25,096 nt of DNA from Promethearchaeota archaeon (GCA_048938105.1 JBHLMN010000032.1:1-25096), one strand, 5' to 3'; positions 13,798 through 21,100 are shown, counted from the stretch's first letter. Notes: generated by a model not told the origin, from the sequence alone. Made by a program: numbers and translations.

Positions 13798-13980
13798 ATG
13801 TCCGATGAAAAATCCCCTGAAGAAAAAATGTTTGATAAGGTTGCGTGCTACCTTTTCAAAGGATCATTAAACACAGTTCAGAAAGAATTTTCTTTACATC
13901 TCTTCGCAGAGTGGTCAAAGGAAAACTTGGATATTATTTTAAAGGCAATTTCTCTATCTAATGATCAGGATTGTAATTAA
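13798..13980 (+). CDS. Small hypothetical protein (60 aa), possibly a fragment
   Basis: MSDEKSPEEKMFDKV... open frame followed by a T-tract; no recognisable motif. Confidence 0.35.
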   Translation: MSDEKSPEEKMFDKVACYLFKGSLNTVQKEFSLHLFAEWSKENLDIILKAISLSNDQDCN

Positions 13981-13998
13981 AATCTTTTTTTCAGTCAA

Positions 13999-14176
13999 TC
14001 AATACATCTCCCCGTTTTTTAACCATTTTTCTATTTGATTGTAAATAAATGGTCACGAATTTTTAACTGACAAATTTTATTTCTTCCTCTTCATCCTCTT
14101 AAAATAATTGGGTCATCAAAGCTCCAATGTAACTGGTATGTCCTTACTAGAAATGGTTAAGACATTTCTCCTTTGC
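13999..14176 (-). pseudogene. arsC: Degraded 3' fragment of a thioredoxin-dependent arsenate reductase (ArsC / LMW-PTP fold)
   Basis: Across frameshifts and stops it reads AKEKC...QLHWSFDDP...DEEEEIKF...KIRDH...QIEKWLK, the C-terminal ArsC pattern (A.E.CP.FP...HW.FDDP...EE...F...RD.I). Confidence 0.65.
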
Positions 14177-14204: not shown

Positions 14205-14441
14205 TTAAGTAAAGGCTTCTTTCTTACGTATTTCGTGAATCACTGTTATAAGTATAAATAGAATCACTAGAGAGATAGAAATAATTAAGAAATGACCACT
14301 ACTTTCACGGAATGGATAATGAATGATTGGTAGCATGCCTTGCGAAGATTCCTGATAATTATAGGAAAAAATAGCTGCGAGGAAGAAGATGGTACTTCCT
14401 AATATTGTGATAAGTTGAGAAATACGTATTATTTCACTCAT
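14205..14441 (-). CDS. Small two-TM membrane protein (78 aa)
   Basis: From ATG 14441 (MSEIIRISQ); two hydrophobic helices flank a YPFRE loop; basic tail. Confidence 0.55.
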   Translation of the reverse strand: MSEIIRISQLITILGSTIFFLAAIFSYNYQESSQGMLPIIHYPFRESSGHFLIISISLVILFILITVIHEIRKKEAFT

Positions 14442-14605
14442 TGTTATCTGACTAGAAGAAAAGCCCTTTAAATTATTAGACTTAATTGTGTTTATATGAT
14501 TAGATGGAAGTGTAATACACCACACTATTGAAAAGCTACAACATAAGGCCAAACAATTCATTTACAACGCAATCTAAGAATTTGATCACCAAAGAGGCGA
14601 GTACC

Positions 14606-14857
14606 ATGGAGGATAAGAAAAGGGGAAAAAGAACAAAAACTAGTAAATTCGGATCTCCTGGCAGAGAAGGTCATGATTCGACAACGTTTTACGCAAGTAA
14701 ATTGTACACAAATCTTCCACGTGAAAAAAACAACGAATATATAGAAAACACGATTCCTCCAAGTAATTTGAATAAAATTTTCACTTCTAGTTCTGAAAAC
14801 ATGGAAGAACTCCCTGATAATAGCGTCCATTTAATGGTAACCTATCCACAAAAATGA
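14606..14857 (+). pseudogene. Truncated beta-class N4/N6 site-specific DNA methyltransferase (N-terminal fragment)
   Basis: TKTSKFGSPGREGHDSTTFY...NKIFTSSSENMEELPDNSVHLMVT is the usual lead-in to motif IV TSPPY. Here it reads TYPQK*, and no rest of the gene follows. GAGG SD upstream of ATG 14606. Confidence 0.8.
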
Positions 14858-14862
14858 ACTAA

Positions 14863-15807
14863 TTATGAAAGTAATCCATACTGTCTTCTTCTCCTATATG
14901 ACCGTCGATTTAATTCCTTGACGTATTCTTTTTTACAAAATTCACACCTTTTGTGGTTATTCCCAGTTTTAATCACTTTTCTACCACAATCTTTACATAT
15001 AATAGTTAATTGATGATGGAATTTAAAAAAACGTTGAAAAATGATATGTTTTCTCTCTAAAAAAATAGTTGGGTTATTATAGAGTCTTTTATAAAATATC
15101 TCGCGACTTTCATTTAAAATACTTAAATAAAACCAAGAACCTTGTAATTTTGAATAGACTTTTGATTTAATTCCTTGATGAATTAAAATTATATTTAATT
15201 TCTGCAAAAACTTTTTACTTCCGCTGGTAAAGATGATTTCCAAACTATTTCCTAGGATCCGAACATGGCCATCTCCATCAAAATAACCTCTTATAAAATC
15301 ATATAGAAATTGTTTAGGTACTTCAGGGAAATCCATAATTTTTGATTTTCGTGGTGTTAAACCTAATTTTAGGAGATCTTGAATGATTTCTTTTCTACTT
15401 ATTGTTAATTGGTGGATAAATCCTGTTTTAATCTTGCTTTTACTAATTCGAATAGTGCTTCTCATTGCGTTATTCATTGATATTAATGATAAGAAATCTT
15501 TAGATTTGATACTTAATTCACTACCTGATCTTCGAATCCGTATCGAACCATCAGCAAATATGTAACCCAGTATGTAGGCCATTTCTCTTGTCCATATTTT
15601 AAAAAAATTGATATTTATCTTATATTTAGATTGAAATCTTTTGTTCTTTCCTATTCTTCTTCTCTTGGCTCTAATACTATTTATTGATCGATTTAAATAA
15701 TTAGATATCTCGTAATCTTTCAACATAGAGTTTTCTTTTAAGAATTGAATTTCTTGACTAGTCCATCTCAATTTTTTCTTTGTTGAAAGAAAATTAGTAG
15801 ATTTCAA
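14863..15807 (-). CDS. Free-standing double-motif LAGLIDADG endonuclease with an N-terminal Myb/HTH domain and a C-terminal Zn ribbon
   Basis: AYILGYIFADG and DFIRGYFDGDG motifs; WTSQEIQFLKEN...LNRSINSIRAKRRRIG Myb-like repeat; CKDC...CEFC; no Hint splicing residues. Confidence 0.85.
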   Translation of the reverse strand: MKSTNFLSTKKKLRWTSQEIQFLKENSMLKDYEISNYLNRSINSIRAKRRRIGKNKRFQSKYKININFFKIWTREMAYILGYIFADGSIRIRRSGSELSIKSKDFLSLISMNNAMRSTIRISKSKIKTGFIHQLTISRKEIIQDLLKLGLTPRKSKIMDFPEVPKQFLYDFIRGYFDGDGHVRILGNSLEIIFTSGSKKFLQKLNIILIHQGIKSKVYSKLQGSWFYLSILNESREIFYKRLYNNPTIFLERKHIIFQRFFKFHHQLTIICKDCGRKVIKTGNNHKRCEFCKKEYVKELNRRSYRRRRQYGLLS

Positions 15808-15950: not shown

Positions 15951-16982
15951 TTACAAATCAAATTCTTCCAAATTCTCTATTGATATAAGCAATTTCTCTT
16001 TTGTTCCATACGAAAAAAGTCTTGGTTCATAATTTTTTAATATTACTCGCATTAGAGCTACTTCAGGATGTTTGAGAGCAATTAATGTGTTTGCAATTAT
16101 TTGTGGCTTAGTTGCAAAGCTACAAAGCAGAACATTATAATTTTTATATTTAGCTAAAATAGATGATAGGGACTGAACAGTTTTCTGAACATCAAAGTTT
16201 TCTATTATACCCTCTTCAAATTGAATTACTTGTCGTAATTCTTTGTGGATCTCTCTTGATATCTTCTCCGCTCTATTAGAATTAAACATATCACTTCTAC
16301 CATATAAAATAATCTTCTTTGTATCCTCGAAACGACTACAGATTGCATCTACCTTATTTATTTCAAATCCTACTGAAAAAATTAATAAATTTTGAAGAAG
16401 TGGATTTGGTAACCCCTCAAATCCTTCGAAGTAGTCAACTCTACTTAAACCACTAGTCATAAGATATCGTCGGCGTGATTCTAAATCCAACTTCTCTTCT
16501 AATTCTAAATCATTATCAAGATAGATTTTTTCAAGATGATAAAATTCTGGCCGTGTATAAAAAATTGATAGAGAATGTGGTTTATATGAAATAAGGTCTA
16601 GAATCAAAATCGGAATTAAACCATCAATGCAGGCACTCACATCAAACATGATATCTTTCAAAACATGTTCACTAAAATGTTTAAAAATCAACCTCAAGCT
16701 TTTTATAGTTTCAAAAGGATCTAAATGATTCAAAGATACATTTGTTAGAGTTTTTACCCGCTTAATGAGAAAATTCTCTATTTTAATTTTATTTTTCTCG
16801 TTTAATTCATTTATCGTTTTGTCTTGTTGAATATATGTTAGAAGAACAGTTTCAGTATCAGATAAATCTGTTTCCTTAAGAGAATCTAAGATACCTCTGC
16901 TACGATCCTCGAAACCTGCTACTAGGATTAAAAGAGAAGGAGGCTTTACAATTTTTTTAATCTGATAAGTAGAAACATTCAA
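15951..16982 (-). CDS. Tandem CARF-like (double Rossmann) protein
   Basis: Repeat 1: LILVAGFEDRS...IMFDVSA...IFYTRPEFY. Repeat 2: LIFSVGFEINKV...VLLCSFATKPQIIA. The TTG start directly abuts the ATPase stop. Confidence 0.6.
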   Translation of the reverse strand: MNVSTYQIKKIVKPPSLLILVAGFEDRSRGILDSLKETDLSDTETVLLTYIQQDKTINELNEKNKIKIENFLIKRVKTLTNVSLNHLDPFETIKSLRLIFKHFSEHVLKDIMFDVSACIDGLIPILILDLISYKPHSLSIFYTRPEFYHLEKIYLDNDLELEEKLDLESRRRYLMTSGLSRVDYFEGFEGLPNPLLQNLLIFSVGFEINKVDAICSRFEDTKKIILYGRSDMFNSNRAEKISREIHKELRQVIQFEEGIIENFDVQKTVQSLSSILAKYKNYNVLLCSFATKPQIIANTLIALKHPEVALMRVILKNYEPRLFSYGTKEKLLISIENLEEFDL

Positions 16983-18656
16983 TTAAGGTTTCCCCATGCT
17001 ATATCCAGATAAAAAAGGGTCTAACGGCTGTTGATCGTAAGGGACTTTCATAGAGTGTAAAAAGTCTTTTTGCGAAGTTAAAATTAAATCAAATTTTTTT
17101 GAGCTAATTTGAACAGCGTCAGGATATGTGGGAATAAGATTATAAGAAGGAGCAAAGACCCCATTTAATCCATACGTCATTTGATTATAAAAACCATCTT
17201 TTCCTTGCCTAAAAAATTGGAAAATAATACCCTCACGTTCAGCATTTTTAAGAAGGTTCTTTGATTCCCTAGATAAATTTACATAGTCCCTCACTGCGAA
17301 ACTAAGGGTTGCAGGATATCTCAAATCGAGTCTATAACGTGATCTAAAGACCTCTGATAATGCTGACAAAAGCTTGAAAAAATCCTCTCCATTTAACGTT
17401 GAATTGAAAGCATACCTCAATCTACTCCTTGAGTACTTAAAAATAGCATCATTTTGAACGTTCTCGGAGAAATCTGGTTTATCAGGGTCCTTTAAACCTT
17501 CAACAAGAATTTCATTGCAGAGATTCATATAAAACCTTGCGACTCCTGACGAAACTCTTAGCACATCTCCAGCTCCGTAATAGGTTAAGATTGGACGTCC
17601 TCTACCCTTTGTTGCTTTAATTTGAATAATTTTATCCTTTAGGCTTTTTGATTCCCCCAATATCTCTTGAATAGAGAATTTTGGGTATTCTTTTCTCAAA
17701 CGTTTGTTAACGATATCTTGCAGGTAATCCTGAAACTTTGAGGGTTTTTGACGAAAAGCAGGACGATTGATAGTTTTCCAATAAATGTCATCAAAAATAT
17801 CAATAGTTTGATTTGGATAACTGAGATTATAGAAACAACCTGATTTACATGCTACCTTGAATGTTAAATAATTATATCTTTCCTTGATTAGAGGATTAAT
17901 TACGGATTGTTGATCCTTTGTAAGCTTATCATATTCATCAAGAAGAATATAAACAATTAAATTGGGATTTTTAAACAAGTATTCACGTAGAATATTTATA
18001 ATTTCGAATAAAAATCGAAAATCTTCAAAAAATGGAATAGTTTTATCAAAAGGCTTCTCATTCAACCTTTTGGACTTTAATTCCTTTATAAGAGATTCTC
18101 TATGATCAACAAAGAATTTCACAAGGGTATCGAGACTTTTACAAGCATCGTTTGCTGATGAAGCTGCAATTTCACATTTAACAAATAAATTTATTAAATT
18201 TTCACGAAGATCAGTAGGAAGATCTTTTTTAACGAGATCAGACTGAATTTTTAAATGAAGAGTATTAAGAAAAAATTCCATTGTAACTATTACAAAAAAT
18301 GATCTAAATAACTCAACAAAAACATCATAATTTTTAAAATATTTTGGTTTTATAAATCCAAAGACATGCTCGTCAGTTTTAAAATAAATTGGTAAAATGT
18401 ATGTAGTAGATGATTGATTAGAATTAAGCTTATTAATTTCTGCTATTTGGAAAAACCTCAGGAACATCGATTTACCAGTTCCTCTGACTCCATCGATAAC
18501 TGCAGGTATATTATTAAATATTATATCATAATCAGTAGGACGTGCGAAATATTCAACAAGTAACGTATCACTAGGTATTCTCTCAGTCATTGTATTCTGT
18601 AGAATTTGCTGAATCAAATTTGGGTCTAATTTTTTTCCCCTTTTTTTTCGCATCAT
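16983..18656 (-). CDS. ORC/CDC6-like (STAND-related) AAA+ P-loop ATPase
   Basis: Walker A GVRGTGKS, long helical insert, Walker B ILLDEYD, FKVAC strand, YYG...SSGVAR helical-domain motif, wHTH-like C-terminus. Confidence 0.8.
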   Translation of the reverse strand: MMRKKRGKKLDPNLIQQILQNTMTERIPSDTLLVEYFARPTDYDIIFNNIPAVIDGVRGTGKSMFLRFFQIAEINKLNSNQSSTTYILPIYFKTDEHVFGFIKPKYFKNYDVFVELFRSFFVIVTMEFFLNTLHLKIQSDLVKKDLPTDLRENLINLFVKCEIAASSANDACKSLDTLVKFFVDHRESLIKELKSKRLNEKPFDKTIPFFEDFRFLFEIINILREYLFKNPNLIVYILLDEYDKLTKDQQSVINPLIKERYNYLTFKVACKSGCFYNLSYPNQTIDIFDDIYWKTINRPAFRQKPSKFQDYLQDIVNKRLRKEYPKFSIQEILGESKSLKDKIIQIKATKGRGRPILTYYGAGDVLRVSSGVARFYMNLCNEILVEGLKDPDKPDFSENVQNDAIFKYSRSRLRYAFNSTLNGEDFFKLLSALSEVFRSRYRLDLRYPATLSFAVRDYVNLSRESKNLLKNAEREGIIFQFFRQGKDGFYNQMTYGLNGVFAPSYNLIPTYPDAVQISSKKFDLILTSQKDFLHSMKVPYDQQPLDPFLSGYSMGKP

Positions 18657-18678
18657 GAGAATTAGTCACTTCTATAAA

Positions 18679-19509
18679 TTATAACTTATTTTTTTTTTCA
18701 TTGAATTTGAAAATTAAATTAATGGGCTTCTTTTCTTCACTAATATCAAAATTCCTTAAAAGGTTTTTTTGTTTATATAAAACAGCAAATACAATTGGTA
18801 TTATGATGCTAGAAATTGTTATTGCAAAACTAGTAAAAACTTGAGCTGTTGGTTCTGGATAAATATTAACCAAGATTTGATACAAAAAAAAGAAACTAAT
18901 CAACAAACCAAGTATAAAATTAAAAATTACTGAAATTATAACTAACAATCGAATATTAGAGAACTTACCATAAATTGCTAAAATACTGTTTTTTATTAAT
19001 TCTTCTTGCTTTTCATTTATTTTAATACCATCAGGTCCAAATTCTTGAATTTTTAAGGTTCCATTCAGTTCAAATATTGAATTGTTGACTATTCTTTGGA
19101 AATTATCTAATTCATCATAATATTTCAGGACTTTATCTAATGGATCAATGGATAAATTTTTTATAACTGGAAAATCAAATTTTCTATAAATACCAGAAGA
19201 ATATAGTTCCTGCTCAATTTTGGATGTTAGGTCTTTTAGGTTTGATCTAAAAGCATTGATTGTATCCTCAAAACTGCTCACAATTTTTATCAATGATTTC
19301 TTCGAAATTTTTCCCGTAGAAACCATTGATTTGATCTGATTGCATATTTCTTTAATGTCTTCATCTATTTTTAATTCAGTATAAGATTGTGGTAATTCAG
19401 ACTTGATAATCTTCCTCAATGCATTTGTATAATCCTCTTGTGTTGCAATTATTTTGTTTCTGAAGTTTTTTAATTTTAGAACTGTCTTATCCTGATTCAT
19501 TTTTCCCAA
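18679..19509 (-). CDS. Hypothetical protein: helical/coiled-coil N-terminus plus two C-terminal TM helices
   Basis: Heptad-rich N-terminal two thirds; TMs LLVIISVIFNFILGLLISFFFLY and VFTSFAITISSIIIPIVFAVLY. Alternative start at ATG 19500. Confidence 0.7.
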   Translation of the reverse strand: MGKMNQDKTVLKLKNFRNKIIATQEDYTNALRKIIKSELPQSYTELKIDEDIKEICNQIKSMVSTGKISKKSLIKIVSSFEDTINAFRSNLKDLTSKIEQELYSSGIYRKFDFPVIKNLSIDPLDKVLKYYDELDNFQRIVNNSIFELNGTLKIQEFGPDGIKINEKQEELIKNSILAIYGKFSNIRLLVIISVIFNFILGLLISFFFLYQILVNIYPEPTAQVFTSFAITISSIIIPIVFAVLYKQKNLLRNFDISEEKKPINLIFKFNEKKNKL

Positions 19510-19543
19510 CCAAAGAATCTAATGAACTCATTTAACTGAAGAT

Positions 19544-20845
19544 TTAAGGATATCTTAAGTGAATTATGCATTCCCTCAATTTAGTTTTATGAAATGTGCT
19601 TCGGCGAAATCTTACTATCTCTATTTCTTCAACGATATAACCTAAGGGTTTAAGTAATTCACATAATAATATGTCTGTTGGTATATGAACATTAGAAAAA
19701 CACGAATCACCTATTACAACAGCAATTTTTGCCCCTGGTTCAAGTATTTTATTTAAATTTTTAAAAGTTGTCTCCATATCCTTGAAATAAGCAGTTATCA
19801 TAGCTGGAACCTTTTTATTAAATGGTTTTGATTGCTTAATTTCTTCTGCTAATTTGACAATTGATGGAGATACTTCAATAATTTCATTTTCCTTTATACT
19901 TCCTAAAAAACTCCTTGAGAATGCTTTTTTAAGCTGATAGAACGCTTCTTTACTTTTTACAAAGTCACACCAAAAAAGTTCTAATTTAGTATTCCGAATA
20001 TAATCTATGTTATTAACATATGGAGGAGAAGTGATAATATTAGTGAATTTTTCGCCATCAAACGCTTTTGATGTTCTATTATCTTCCATTACTAGCTTAT
20101 AGTTGTTATTTTTCACATTGTATTTTTTCCTTATCCATTTCAAGTCTTGGATTACAATATTAAGCCGATTAACATATTCTTCCCATACATTCTTTTCCAT
20201 CGTCATTTTTGATTTTTTATAACCAAGAGAGGGAGATCTAGATGCATTAGACATATCAACAAGCAGTGATGAAAAAATTAACATCAAAAGGTTTCTTAAA
20301 GATATATTATCCAGAAAAAACCAATGTTCTTTCAAAATTAATAAACGTGTTATAGTATTTTTATCATAGAATTTCTCAAGTGTATTCATTGATGGTGGTT
20401 TTAAGGTGATATTGGTTTTAGCTTCAAGAAATTCTTTATTTTTTTCTTTATTACTTTTTAAAAACTTATATTTATTTAAGATCTCATTGAATACTTGTTC
20501 TAATAAAATAATATCTATATCCCAGTTTAATTTCACCTTGGCAAGAAAATGAACAAAAGGATTTAGTTCAAAACCTGCTGAGTATATCTCCCTCTTTTTT
20601 GCTTCTACTAAAATCGTTCCACACCCTGTGAAAGGATCAAAAATCCTTGACTTCTTATTAATCTTGTACCTCTTAAACATATTCTCAACAAAAGACTGAC
20701 TAAATCCCTCTTTATAAGGAAACCATCTGTGAATTGGTGTTTGAGTGTTCCTCTGAAAAGTAACTGAAAAAGGATCAATGTTTTTTGTACTTCTTGTTAT
20801 TTTTCTGTAAGTATTGCTAATACTCGGAGAATACGTACTGGTCAA
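19544..20845 (-). CDS. Site-specific amino-DNA methyltransferase, probably m4C (motif I before motif IV)
   Basis: IHRWFPYKEGFS, FDPFTGCGT (motif I), ITSPPY (motif IV), VVIGDS; GAGGT SD before the TTG start. Confidence 0.9.
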   Translation of the reverse strand: MTSTYSPSISNTYRKITRSTKNIDPFSVTFQRNTQTPIHRWFPYKEGFSQSFVENMFKRYKINKKSRIFDPFTGCGTILVEAKKREIYSAGFELNPFVHFLAKVKLNWDIDIILLEQVFNEILNKYKFLKSNKEKNKEFLEAKTNITLKPPSMNTLEKFYDKNTITRLLILKEHWFFLDNISLRNLLMLIFSSLLVDMSNASRSPSLGYKKSKMTMEKNVWEEYVNRLNIVIQDLKWIRKKYNVKNNNYKLVMEDNRTSKAFDGEKFTNIITSPPYVNNIDYIRNTKLELFWCDFVKSKEAFYQLKKAFSRSFLGSIKENEIIEVSPSIVKLAEEIKQSKPFNKKVPAMITAYFKDMETTFKNLNKILEPGAKIAVVIGDSCFSNVHIPTDILLCELLKPLGYIVEEIEIVRFRRSTFHKTKLRECIIHLRYP

Positions 20846-21100
20846 TAGAAATACCTCTATTCAGAATAATTTAATGTAAAAATTTAACAATGATCAGCCC
20901 ATTCATGTTAAAGCTGTTCATCAAACTAAACTAGATAACCGTATATTCCTTAAATATTAACAATTAAGATCAAATATTGATTAAGCTTTATACATTTTTT
21001 GCTCAATTTATTTATAATTAAGCTCTTTGAAAAATTTTGACTCAAAATTTTCTAAACACTTCTTATTAATTGGTATTTTAGATCGATTTGAAAGGTTAAA

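Follow-up and report, generated by a model that had tools for sequence, protein, structure and literature searches.

What does a compact row of genes encoding a DNA methyltransferase, an orphan membrane protein, an ORC-CDC6-like ATPase and a tandem-CARF protein do in an Asgard archaeon, and how did it come to lie among housekeeping genes? The question is raised by positions 15951-20845 of contig JBHLMN010000032.1 from a Promethearchaeota archaeon (GCA_048938105.1). The window, i.e. the whole stretch of DNA analysed here, is the complete contig (C44; 25,096 bp) of a 5.85-Mb genome that is rated 99% complete and belongs to a Hodarchaeales (Asgard) archaeon, the nearest public protein match being named Candidatus Hodarchaeales. 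A first-pass annotation, made from the sequence alone, had seen in these genes a candidate for an undescribed archaeal defence operon. The word undescribed proved too strong, since the arrangement of methylase, effector, PF24389 ATPase and CARF6 protein is already catalogued (PF24389, PF24390, the PADLOC CARF6 models and the fusion reported in PMC4012209) and was confirmed here in six independent loci. Judged by gene order and protein families, the block is a variant of this catalogued, experimentally uncharacterised class, and the membrane-protein form is what is new. We regard it as a variant and not as a standard member because the gene upstream of the ATPase has no known effector family and only generic-bundle fold matches, where a standard member has PRTase-CE or HD-CE as a separate gene or a fused TIR, SIR2, Mrr or kinase domain. 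By gene-slot analogy and family architecture, we lean, with some reserve, towards the view that it is a horizontally acquired member of the class, in which methylation-gated sensing by the ATPase and the CARF protein would turn on a membrane effector.

The four proteins of the cassette

The cassette comprises four minus-strand open reading frames (ORFs), separated in gene order (5' to 3') by annotated gaps of 34, 22 and 0 nucleotides (nt), and has a G+C content of 29.3%, as against 35.7% and 36.1% in the two flanks, where the genes are metabolic or housekeeping (thiolase, SCP2, HAD, DHH, HpaB and ADH). The first-pass annotation had described the co-oriented packing, its coordinates and the AT-rich DNA (flanks at ~36%) among such neighbours accurately, and all four of its domain calls agree with the motifs, family matches and fold reported below.

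The first gene of the block (19544-20845, 433 amino acids, aa), placed in the same operon as the PF24389 ATPase, encodes a DNA methyltransferase in which motif I (FDPFTGCG, aa 69-76) precedes motif IV (SPPY, aa 273-276), both being intact. The protein matches the PADLOC MTase_II model PDLC03224 over its full length (4.9e-51, aa 9-431) and the Pfam family PF01555 (N6_N4_Mtase) with 28.1 bits (cut-off 26.7), while the SPPY type of motif IV is only suggestive of N4-cytosine specificity. Among the related loci (numbered with L, their genomes with G), its counterparts in L005 and L006 are 84% and 80% identical, and distant kin with the same order of motifs are encoded in L028 (E 3e-16) and L022 (E 1e-21).

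The third gene (16983-18656, 557 aa) encodes an AAA+ ATPase of the ORC-CDC6-like family PF24389 (5.7e-39; 134.7 bits, cut-off 27), with Walker A (GVRGTGKS) at aa 56-63 (18468-18491) and Walker B (LLDEYD) at aa 238-243 (17928-17945). A sequence search of solved structures returned no match for this protein or for the methyltransferase, and an exhaustive HMMER search among 1.84 billion representatives recovered only 188 relatives of the ATPase at E<0.001. PF24389 relatives carry N-terminal TIR, SIR2, Mrr_cat-type nuclease or protein kinase domains, and the family is defence-like.

At its C-terminus the ATPase bears a canonical PIP-box (PCNA-interacting peptide; QQPLDPFL, 17010-17033), which is kept in P0005, P0006 and P0007 and also in relatives at 24% identity (P0013 and P0014); a gene copy of the P0014 type is present in G052, which is an Asgard genome from the same class. 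Not every PF24389 member has the motif, and the window ATPase belongs to a short subfamily with a terminal canonical PIP motif, which is new here. Across the family, the looser pattern Q..[LMIFV]F was found within the last 25 residues of 20% of 140 PF24389 members, compared with 0.8% of internal windows (~25-fold), and in their sequence these tails resemble clamp-binding peptides.

The last gene (15951-16982, 343 aa), whose start codon abuts the ATPase stop codon, encodes a protein with the motifs GFEDR (aa 23-27) and ATKPQ (aa 290-294) that matches the PADLOC CARF6 model PDLC01917 (6.5e-18) and is 15-20% identical to the mainstream CARF6 family. By sequence, it found a single match among solved structures (E 0.22), and a pattern scan of the genome contigs with the CARF alignment gave no relatives. 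The fold was assigned from an AlphaFold2 (AF2) model of high quality scores (pLDDT 90, pTM 0.91), computed from a 44-sequence alignment in which D114 is invariant and T291 and K292 are nearly so. When this model was searched with VIA-align, ranks 1-38 were all occupied by CARF proteins, the best being Can1 (6sce_A; Z 13.4, 236 residues aligned over aa 15-319, across both halves). The annotation had staked its proposal on this protein having a CARF or Rossmann fold, and a tandem CARF fold, Rossmann-like and with the conserved motifs after beta1 and beta4, is what the model and its match to Can1 support.

The second gene (18679-19509, 276 aa) encodes the orphan protein with two transmembrane (2TM) helices. 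Because its homologues begin at its fourth codon, translation probably begins at the ATG at 19500, and the first gap would then be 43 nt. The hydrophobic helices (~aa 186-216 and 221-247) are linked by YPEPT, and the Lys/Arg-rich segments that flank this hairpin, together with its five-residue loop, suggest that both termini are cytoplasmic. No family was found for the protein in Pfam, PADLOC or NCBIfam. Its AF2 model (pLDDT 68) consists of a four-helix bundle (aa 1-153) followed by the helical hairpin (~aa 186-247); with this model, Foldseek returned nothing at E<0.001 and a wide VIA-align search returned generic helical bundles only (best Z 8.8). A weak NCBIfam match to xenorhabdolysin subunit A (20.5 bits, cut-off 125) had no structural support and was dropped.

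The 2TM protein is 66% (L005) and 47% (L006) identical to its orthologues, compared with 75-88% for its three operon partners, and by this measure it evolves much faster than they do. No credible homologue was found in 398 other Asgard genomes; the one in L008 (27% identity) has the same hairpin and lies directly upstream of an ATPase.

Related loci and the effector slot

The first-pass annotation had placed the 2TM protein in an effector slot, an idea that gained support from comparison with other loci. In L028, which comes from another genome of the same genus, a methylase (485 aa), PRTase-CE (PF24390, 9e-64), a PF24389 ATPase (1e-108) and CARF6 (6e-44) follow one another in the gene order of the window, so that PRTase-CE stands in the 2TM slot between methylase and ATPase. 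The same four-gene order with PRTase-CE was found in L029-L034, beside an MmeI-type restriction-modification (R-M) enzyme, and PRTase-CE, ATPase and CARF6 occur together in three further Asgard genomes. Further support for the slot comes from the effector domains that are N-terminally fused to other PF24389 ATPases. A kinase-ATPase-CARF fusion was described in PMC4012209; PADLOC holds it as CARF6--CARF_STK_AAA (PDLC01925), alongside a CARF6-TM form (PDLC01924).

The surroundings of the ATPase vary. In L008, where they differ from those of the window, the ATPase and the CARF protein are 48% and 45% identical to ours and a ParB-fused methylase lies 2.3 kb away. In L023, an ATPase (26% identical) and CARF6 (4e-23) are accompanied by a multi-TM protein, a Dam-class methylase and a LAGLIDADG-like gene (weak Pfam match, E 0.006), and L024 holds an ATPase, CARF6 and a homologous multi-TM protein, adjoining DarT/Macro and with no methylase. 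In a further branch of the ATPase (L021, L022 and L049), the gene upstream is DUF4145-like and the methylase is convergent. Taken together, the ATPase is conserved and CARF6 lies directly downstream of it in most loci (it is missing from the DUF4145 branch and from L055), the upstream effector gene or fused effector domain is variable, and a methylase, of varying family, is present in most loci.

Several of these loci deserve a closer description. The DUF4145-like proteins (237-250 aa, with a GNDAxH motif; L021:1068-1781, L022:48-800, L049:105-857 and L027:3-176) are encoded upstream of the ATPase, with a convergent permuted methylase downstream and no CARF6, and they represent another effector version; in L021, a full DUF4145 (PD-T7-4-like) gene and Csa1 also lie close by. 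In L055 (G069:C44, 5017-9611), from the same genus as the window, a beta-class methylase, a 252-aa protein of no known kind, a 630-aa PF24389 ATPase and a 203-aa five-TM protein are co-directional and CARF6 was not detected; this locus may be a further membrane-effector variant. In L052 (G142:C778), a gene for a CAP12/Pycsar-type TIR effector (883-1692) sits directly upstream of a cassette of PRTase-CE, ATPase and CARF6.

The same genes as in the window recur in L005 and in L006/L007 (ATPase 88% and 78% identical), together with the window's flanks; considered as independent evidence of linkage, these loci were rejected on account of their syntenic flanks. One might therefore suppose that two unrelated neighbours have been taken for one unit, the methylase being an orphan accompanied by the small membrane protein and the ATPase-CARF6 pair standing apart, the more so as the complete set with this 2TM protein was seen only in such closely related, syntenic genomes and a methylase is missing near some ATPase-CARF6 pairs. 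We hold this to be decidedly unlikely, as methylases of three families (permuted N6_N4, Dam/D12 and ParB-fused beta class) occur at <=3 kb from the ATPase in 5/6 independent neighbourhoods, in many cases with a shared operon and gene order, L008 likewise has its 2TM homologue immediately ahead of the ATPase, and the gaps within the cassette are only 0-43 nt.

Among the Asgard genomes the genes are rare: the CARF6 query was found in 2/399 and PF24389 in 13/399, the ATPase being absent from 18/20 genomes of the same genus. This distribution bears on the possibility that the ATPase is an ORC/Cdc6 paralogue which, docked on PCNA, couples DNA methylation to replication as part of ordinary housekeeping or regulation, without any conflict system. 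The family, the conserved C-terminal PIP-box and the housekeeping neighbours would fit such a role, yet the sporadic occurrence, the low G+C content, the disruption of a resident gene (see below) and the fusion of relatives to TIR, SIR2 or Mrr effectors speak against it, and we consider it highly improbable.

The closest known system is the catalogued cassette of methylase, PRTase-CE (PF24390), PF24389 ATPase and CARF6 (PADLOC PDLC01910-01925), which was verified in L028, L029-L034, L050, L052 and L054. It has in common with the window the gene order, the tight coupling, the ATPase and CARF6 families, the permuted order of the methylase motifs and a patchy, island-like distribution. The two differ in the effector (PRTase-CE versus a four-helix-bundle/2TM protein) and in the ATPase, which in the window is ~100-130 aa shorter, scores 135 bits to PF24389, as against 365 bits in L028, and has a PIP-box at its end. 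What is new is the orphan membrane protein in the slot of PRTase-CE or of a fused TIR, SIR2, Mrr or kinase domain, the short PIP-bearing ATPase, the Asgard host and the endonuclease-borne insertion.

Likenesses to other defence systems are more partial. Can1 of type III CRISPR (PDB 6sce) has two CARF domains per chain, as does the window protein, whereas nuclease domains are found only in Can1, the sequence identity is 7% and no Cas10 was found in the window's genome. In Cam1 and other CARF-TM effectors of type III CRISPR, as well as in the 2TM effectors of CBASS, a nucleotide sensor is likewise tied to a small membrane-helix effector (the CARF domain of Cam1 matches at Z 10-11); in the window, by contrast, sensor and membrane protein are separate genes with the ATPase between them, there is no cyclase, and the membrane protein shows no sequence relationship to those effectors. 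BREX resembles the cassette in being methylation-linked, in having no dedicated nuclease and in combining an ATPase of the ORC/Cdc6 clade (BrxC) with a methylase (PglX; PMC12839542). The four window proteins match no BREX model in PADLOC, however, the window ATPase is far smaller than BrxC, and CARF6 and the membrane protein have no BREX counterpart. The STAND-type defence NTPases (Avs-like) share their effector-NTPase-sensor layout with those ATPase relatives that bear N-terminal TIR, SIR2, Mrr or kinase domains, while the window has a gene of its own for the effector and, as sensor input, a separate CARF protein plus the methylase.

Insertion into a resident methyltransferase gene

The history of the block can be read from a relative that lacks the cassette. 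In G067 the gene row is HpaB, DHH, an intact beta-class SPPY methylase of 308 aa, a 281-aa gene, HAD, SCP2 and thiolase. The window retains, on the plus strand (14606-14857), an N-terminal remnant of this resident methyltransferase (aa 1-81) that is 78% identical to the intact G067 gene (L020:5855-6781) and ends in degenerate SPPY codons. The C-terminal half, compared with L005, L006 and G067, has been lost in the window at 20846-21100, where a 255-bp AT-rich spacer, presumed to be a promoter region, separates the start of the cassette methylase from the divergent DHH gene and marks the second edge of the block. In L005 both halves of the resident methylase (aa 1-83 and aa 83-308), which between them occupy L005:6561-7238 and 13900-14148, are retained around a 6.66-kb insert. 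Comparing occupied with empty sites identifies the block as mobile and as inserted precisely at the SPPY codons of the resident methylase.

The other edge of the block is formed by a free-standing LAGLIDADG endonuclease gene (14863-15807, minus strand; PF14528 LAGLIDADG_3, 2.7e-14), co-oriented with the cassette, 143 nt downstream of it and conserved in L005 and L006 (63% identity). Its 314-aa product has two LAGLIDADG motifs with their acidic residues (...FADGS... and ...FDGDGH...), an N-terminal HTH-like (helix-turn-helix) region and a C-terminal, zinc-ribbon-like CxxC...CxxC. The gene points to homing, because its stop codon sits at the insertion junction that splits a conserved catalytic motif, 5 nt from the methylase remnant. 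On these grounds the protein is most likely the homing agent of the block and stands outside the immune mechanism.

The first-pass annotation had stated that the operon lacks a restriction enzyme; this holds for the four proteins, none of which matches a restriction endonuclease family, but it overlooked the LAGLIDADG gene, as it did the insertion into the resident methylase. Could the LAGLIDADG protein, then, supply the nuclease of an R-M-like system, with the ATPase and the CARF protein as its regulators? Its orientation and proximity, its conservation in L005-L007 and the LAGLIDADG-like gene beside a methylase in the distant L023 (with its weak Pfam match) lend some colour to the idea. Nevertheless, the gene is absent from L008, L024, L028, L029-L034, L050, L052 and L054, for which reason we rejected it as a conserved part of the system, and the position of its stop codon is typical of a homing endonuclease gene; we thus judge an R-M-like arrangement very unlikely.

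Further traces of rearrangement were noted around the junctions. A TAYA tetranucleotide is present at both L005 junctions. The L005 insert contains a 99-aa fragment of a DHH gene (L005:7213-7536, minus strand) that is 73% identical to the window DHH and 69% identical to L005's own, and because it is nearer to the former, we conclude that flanking DNA from another genome arrived with the L005 cassette. Between DHH and the cassette, L005 (5521-6537) and L006 (4724-5740) carry an ApbA (ketopantoate reductase-like) gene together with C-terminal remnants of the resident methylase; the window has neither, and its DHH gene is next to the cassette. In L023 (4746-6356) the LAGLIDADG-like gene is followed, at the contig end, by an ORF whose match to a beta-class methylase is confined to the C-terminal part of the latter (aa 219-275); here, too, a cassette carried by an endonuclease may have entered a methylase gene. 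Two minus-strand ORFs of the window (14205-14561, 118 aa, and 14558-14830, 90 aa) have no family match, overlap the plus-strand methylase remnant, which is backed by homology, and are probably not genes.

An insertion of this kind could also serve chiefly itself. The cassette would then be the addiction module of a selfish element that is the main beneficiary, with the methylase as antidote and the ATPase, CARF and membrane proteins as a poison fired when methylation lapses, so that loss of the endonuclease-borne block would kill the cell. Consistent with this are the homing-type endonuclease at the edge of the insertion, the destroyed resident methylase, the movement of the block between related genomes with flanking DNA and the first position of the methylase in the operon. 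On the other side, relatives of the ATPase-CARF6 pair occur without methylase or endonuclease and have known defence genes for neighbours (those of DarTG, MmeI and a TIR protein of the Pycsar type). We regard addiction as the principal role as unlikely, while noting that addiction and defence are compatible and not mutually exclusive.

Proposed mechanism and its implications

We return to the reading of the block as a methylation-gated defence cassette with a membrane effector. We reason that the methylase would mark host DNA, and that the ATPase would act as a STAND-like switch: with its Arg-bearing P-loop and a predicted PCNA-binding motif at the C-terminus, it would attach to DNA at or near the sliding clamp and change its state when it meets DNA that is foreign or unmarked. 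A nucleotide-ligand input would be added by the tandem CARF protein, which is probably bound to the ATPase, since the two are fused in relatives. The active complex would then turn on the inner-membrane protein (a cytoplasmic four-helix bundle plus hairpin), which would damage the membrane and halt growth, resulting in abortive infection. This reading is supported by the order and close coupling of the genes, the assignment of 3/4 of the proteins to a fold or family, the recurrence of the ATPase-CARF6 pair with methylases of three families, the replacement of the effector in relatives, the faster divergence of the 2TM protein, the conserved PIP motif, the patchy distribution, the low G+C content, the insertion and the foreign DHH fragment in L005.

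Several observations weigh against it. The 2TM protein cannot be assigned to any toxin or pore family, and confidence in its model is only moderate. The sequence examined contains no methylase in L024, L052 and L054, and L005-L007, sharing the window's flanks, provide no independent evidence for linkage of the four genes. The cassette has no signal-making enzyme: nothing CRISPR-related and no CD-NTase/SMODS cyclase was found in the window, and in the 99%-complete genome Cas10 was not found (hidden Markov models TIGR02577 and TIGR02578) and the only SMODS match, on another contig, is of 23 bits, sub-threshold and interrupted by a stop. A literature search on CARF6, PRTase-CE, PF24389 and Sll1717 gave nothing relevant, and in the literature accessible to search no experimental test of any class member was found.

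A bolder extension, suggested by the C-terminal tails, is that the class performs a replication-coupled check, in which the ATPase would ride on the sliding clamp through its PIP-box (PCNA in archaea, the beta clamp in bacteria), read the methylase mark on new DNA and, together with the nucleotide sensed by CARF, fire the membrane effector. We put this forward as a long shot; if true, clamp-coupled inspection would be a general principle of a widespread, nuclease-free, methylation-linked immune class.

The class to which the block is assigned is widespread and has a CARF sensor without a signal-making enzyme and a methylase without a nuclease. For the variant described here, the conserved PIP-box predicts docking on PCNA, and a membrane effector would be an activity easily read by membrane potential or growth arrest. 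As the natural pair of occupied and empty sites shows, the block moves together with an endonuclease of the homing type, its target being the codons for the catalytic motif of a resident methylase, and the related loci indicate that Asgard archaea hold several effector versions of the class within one genus.

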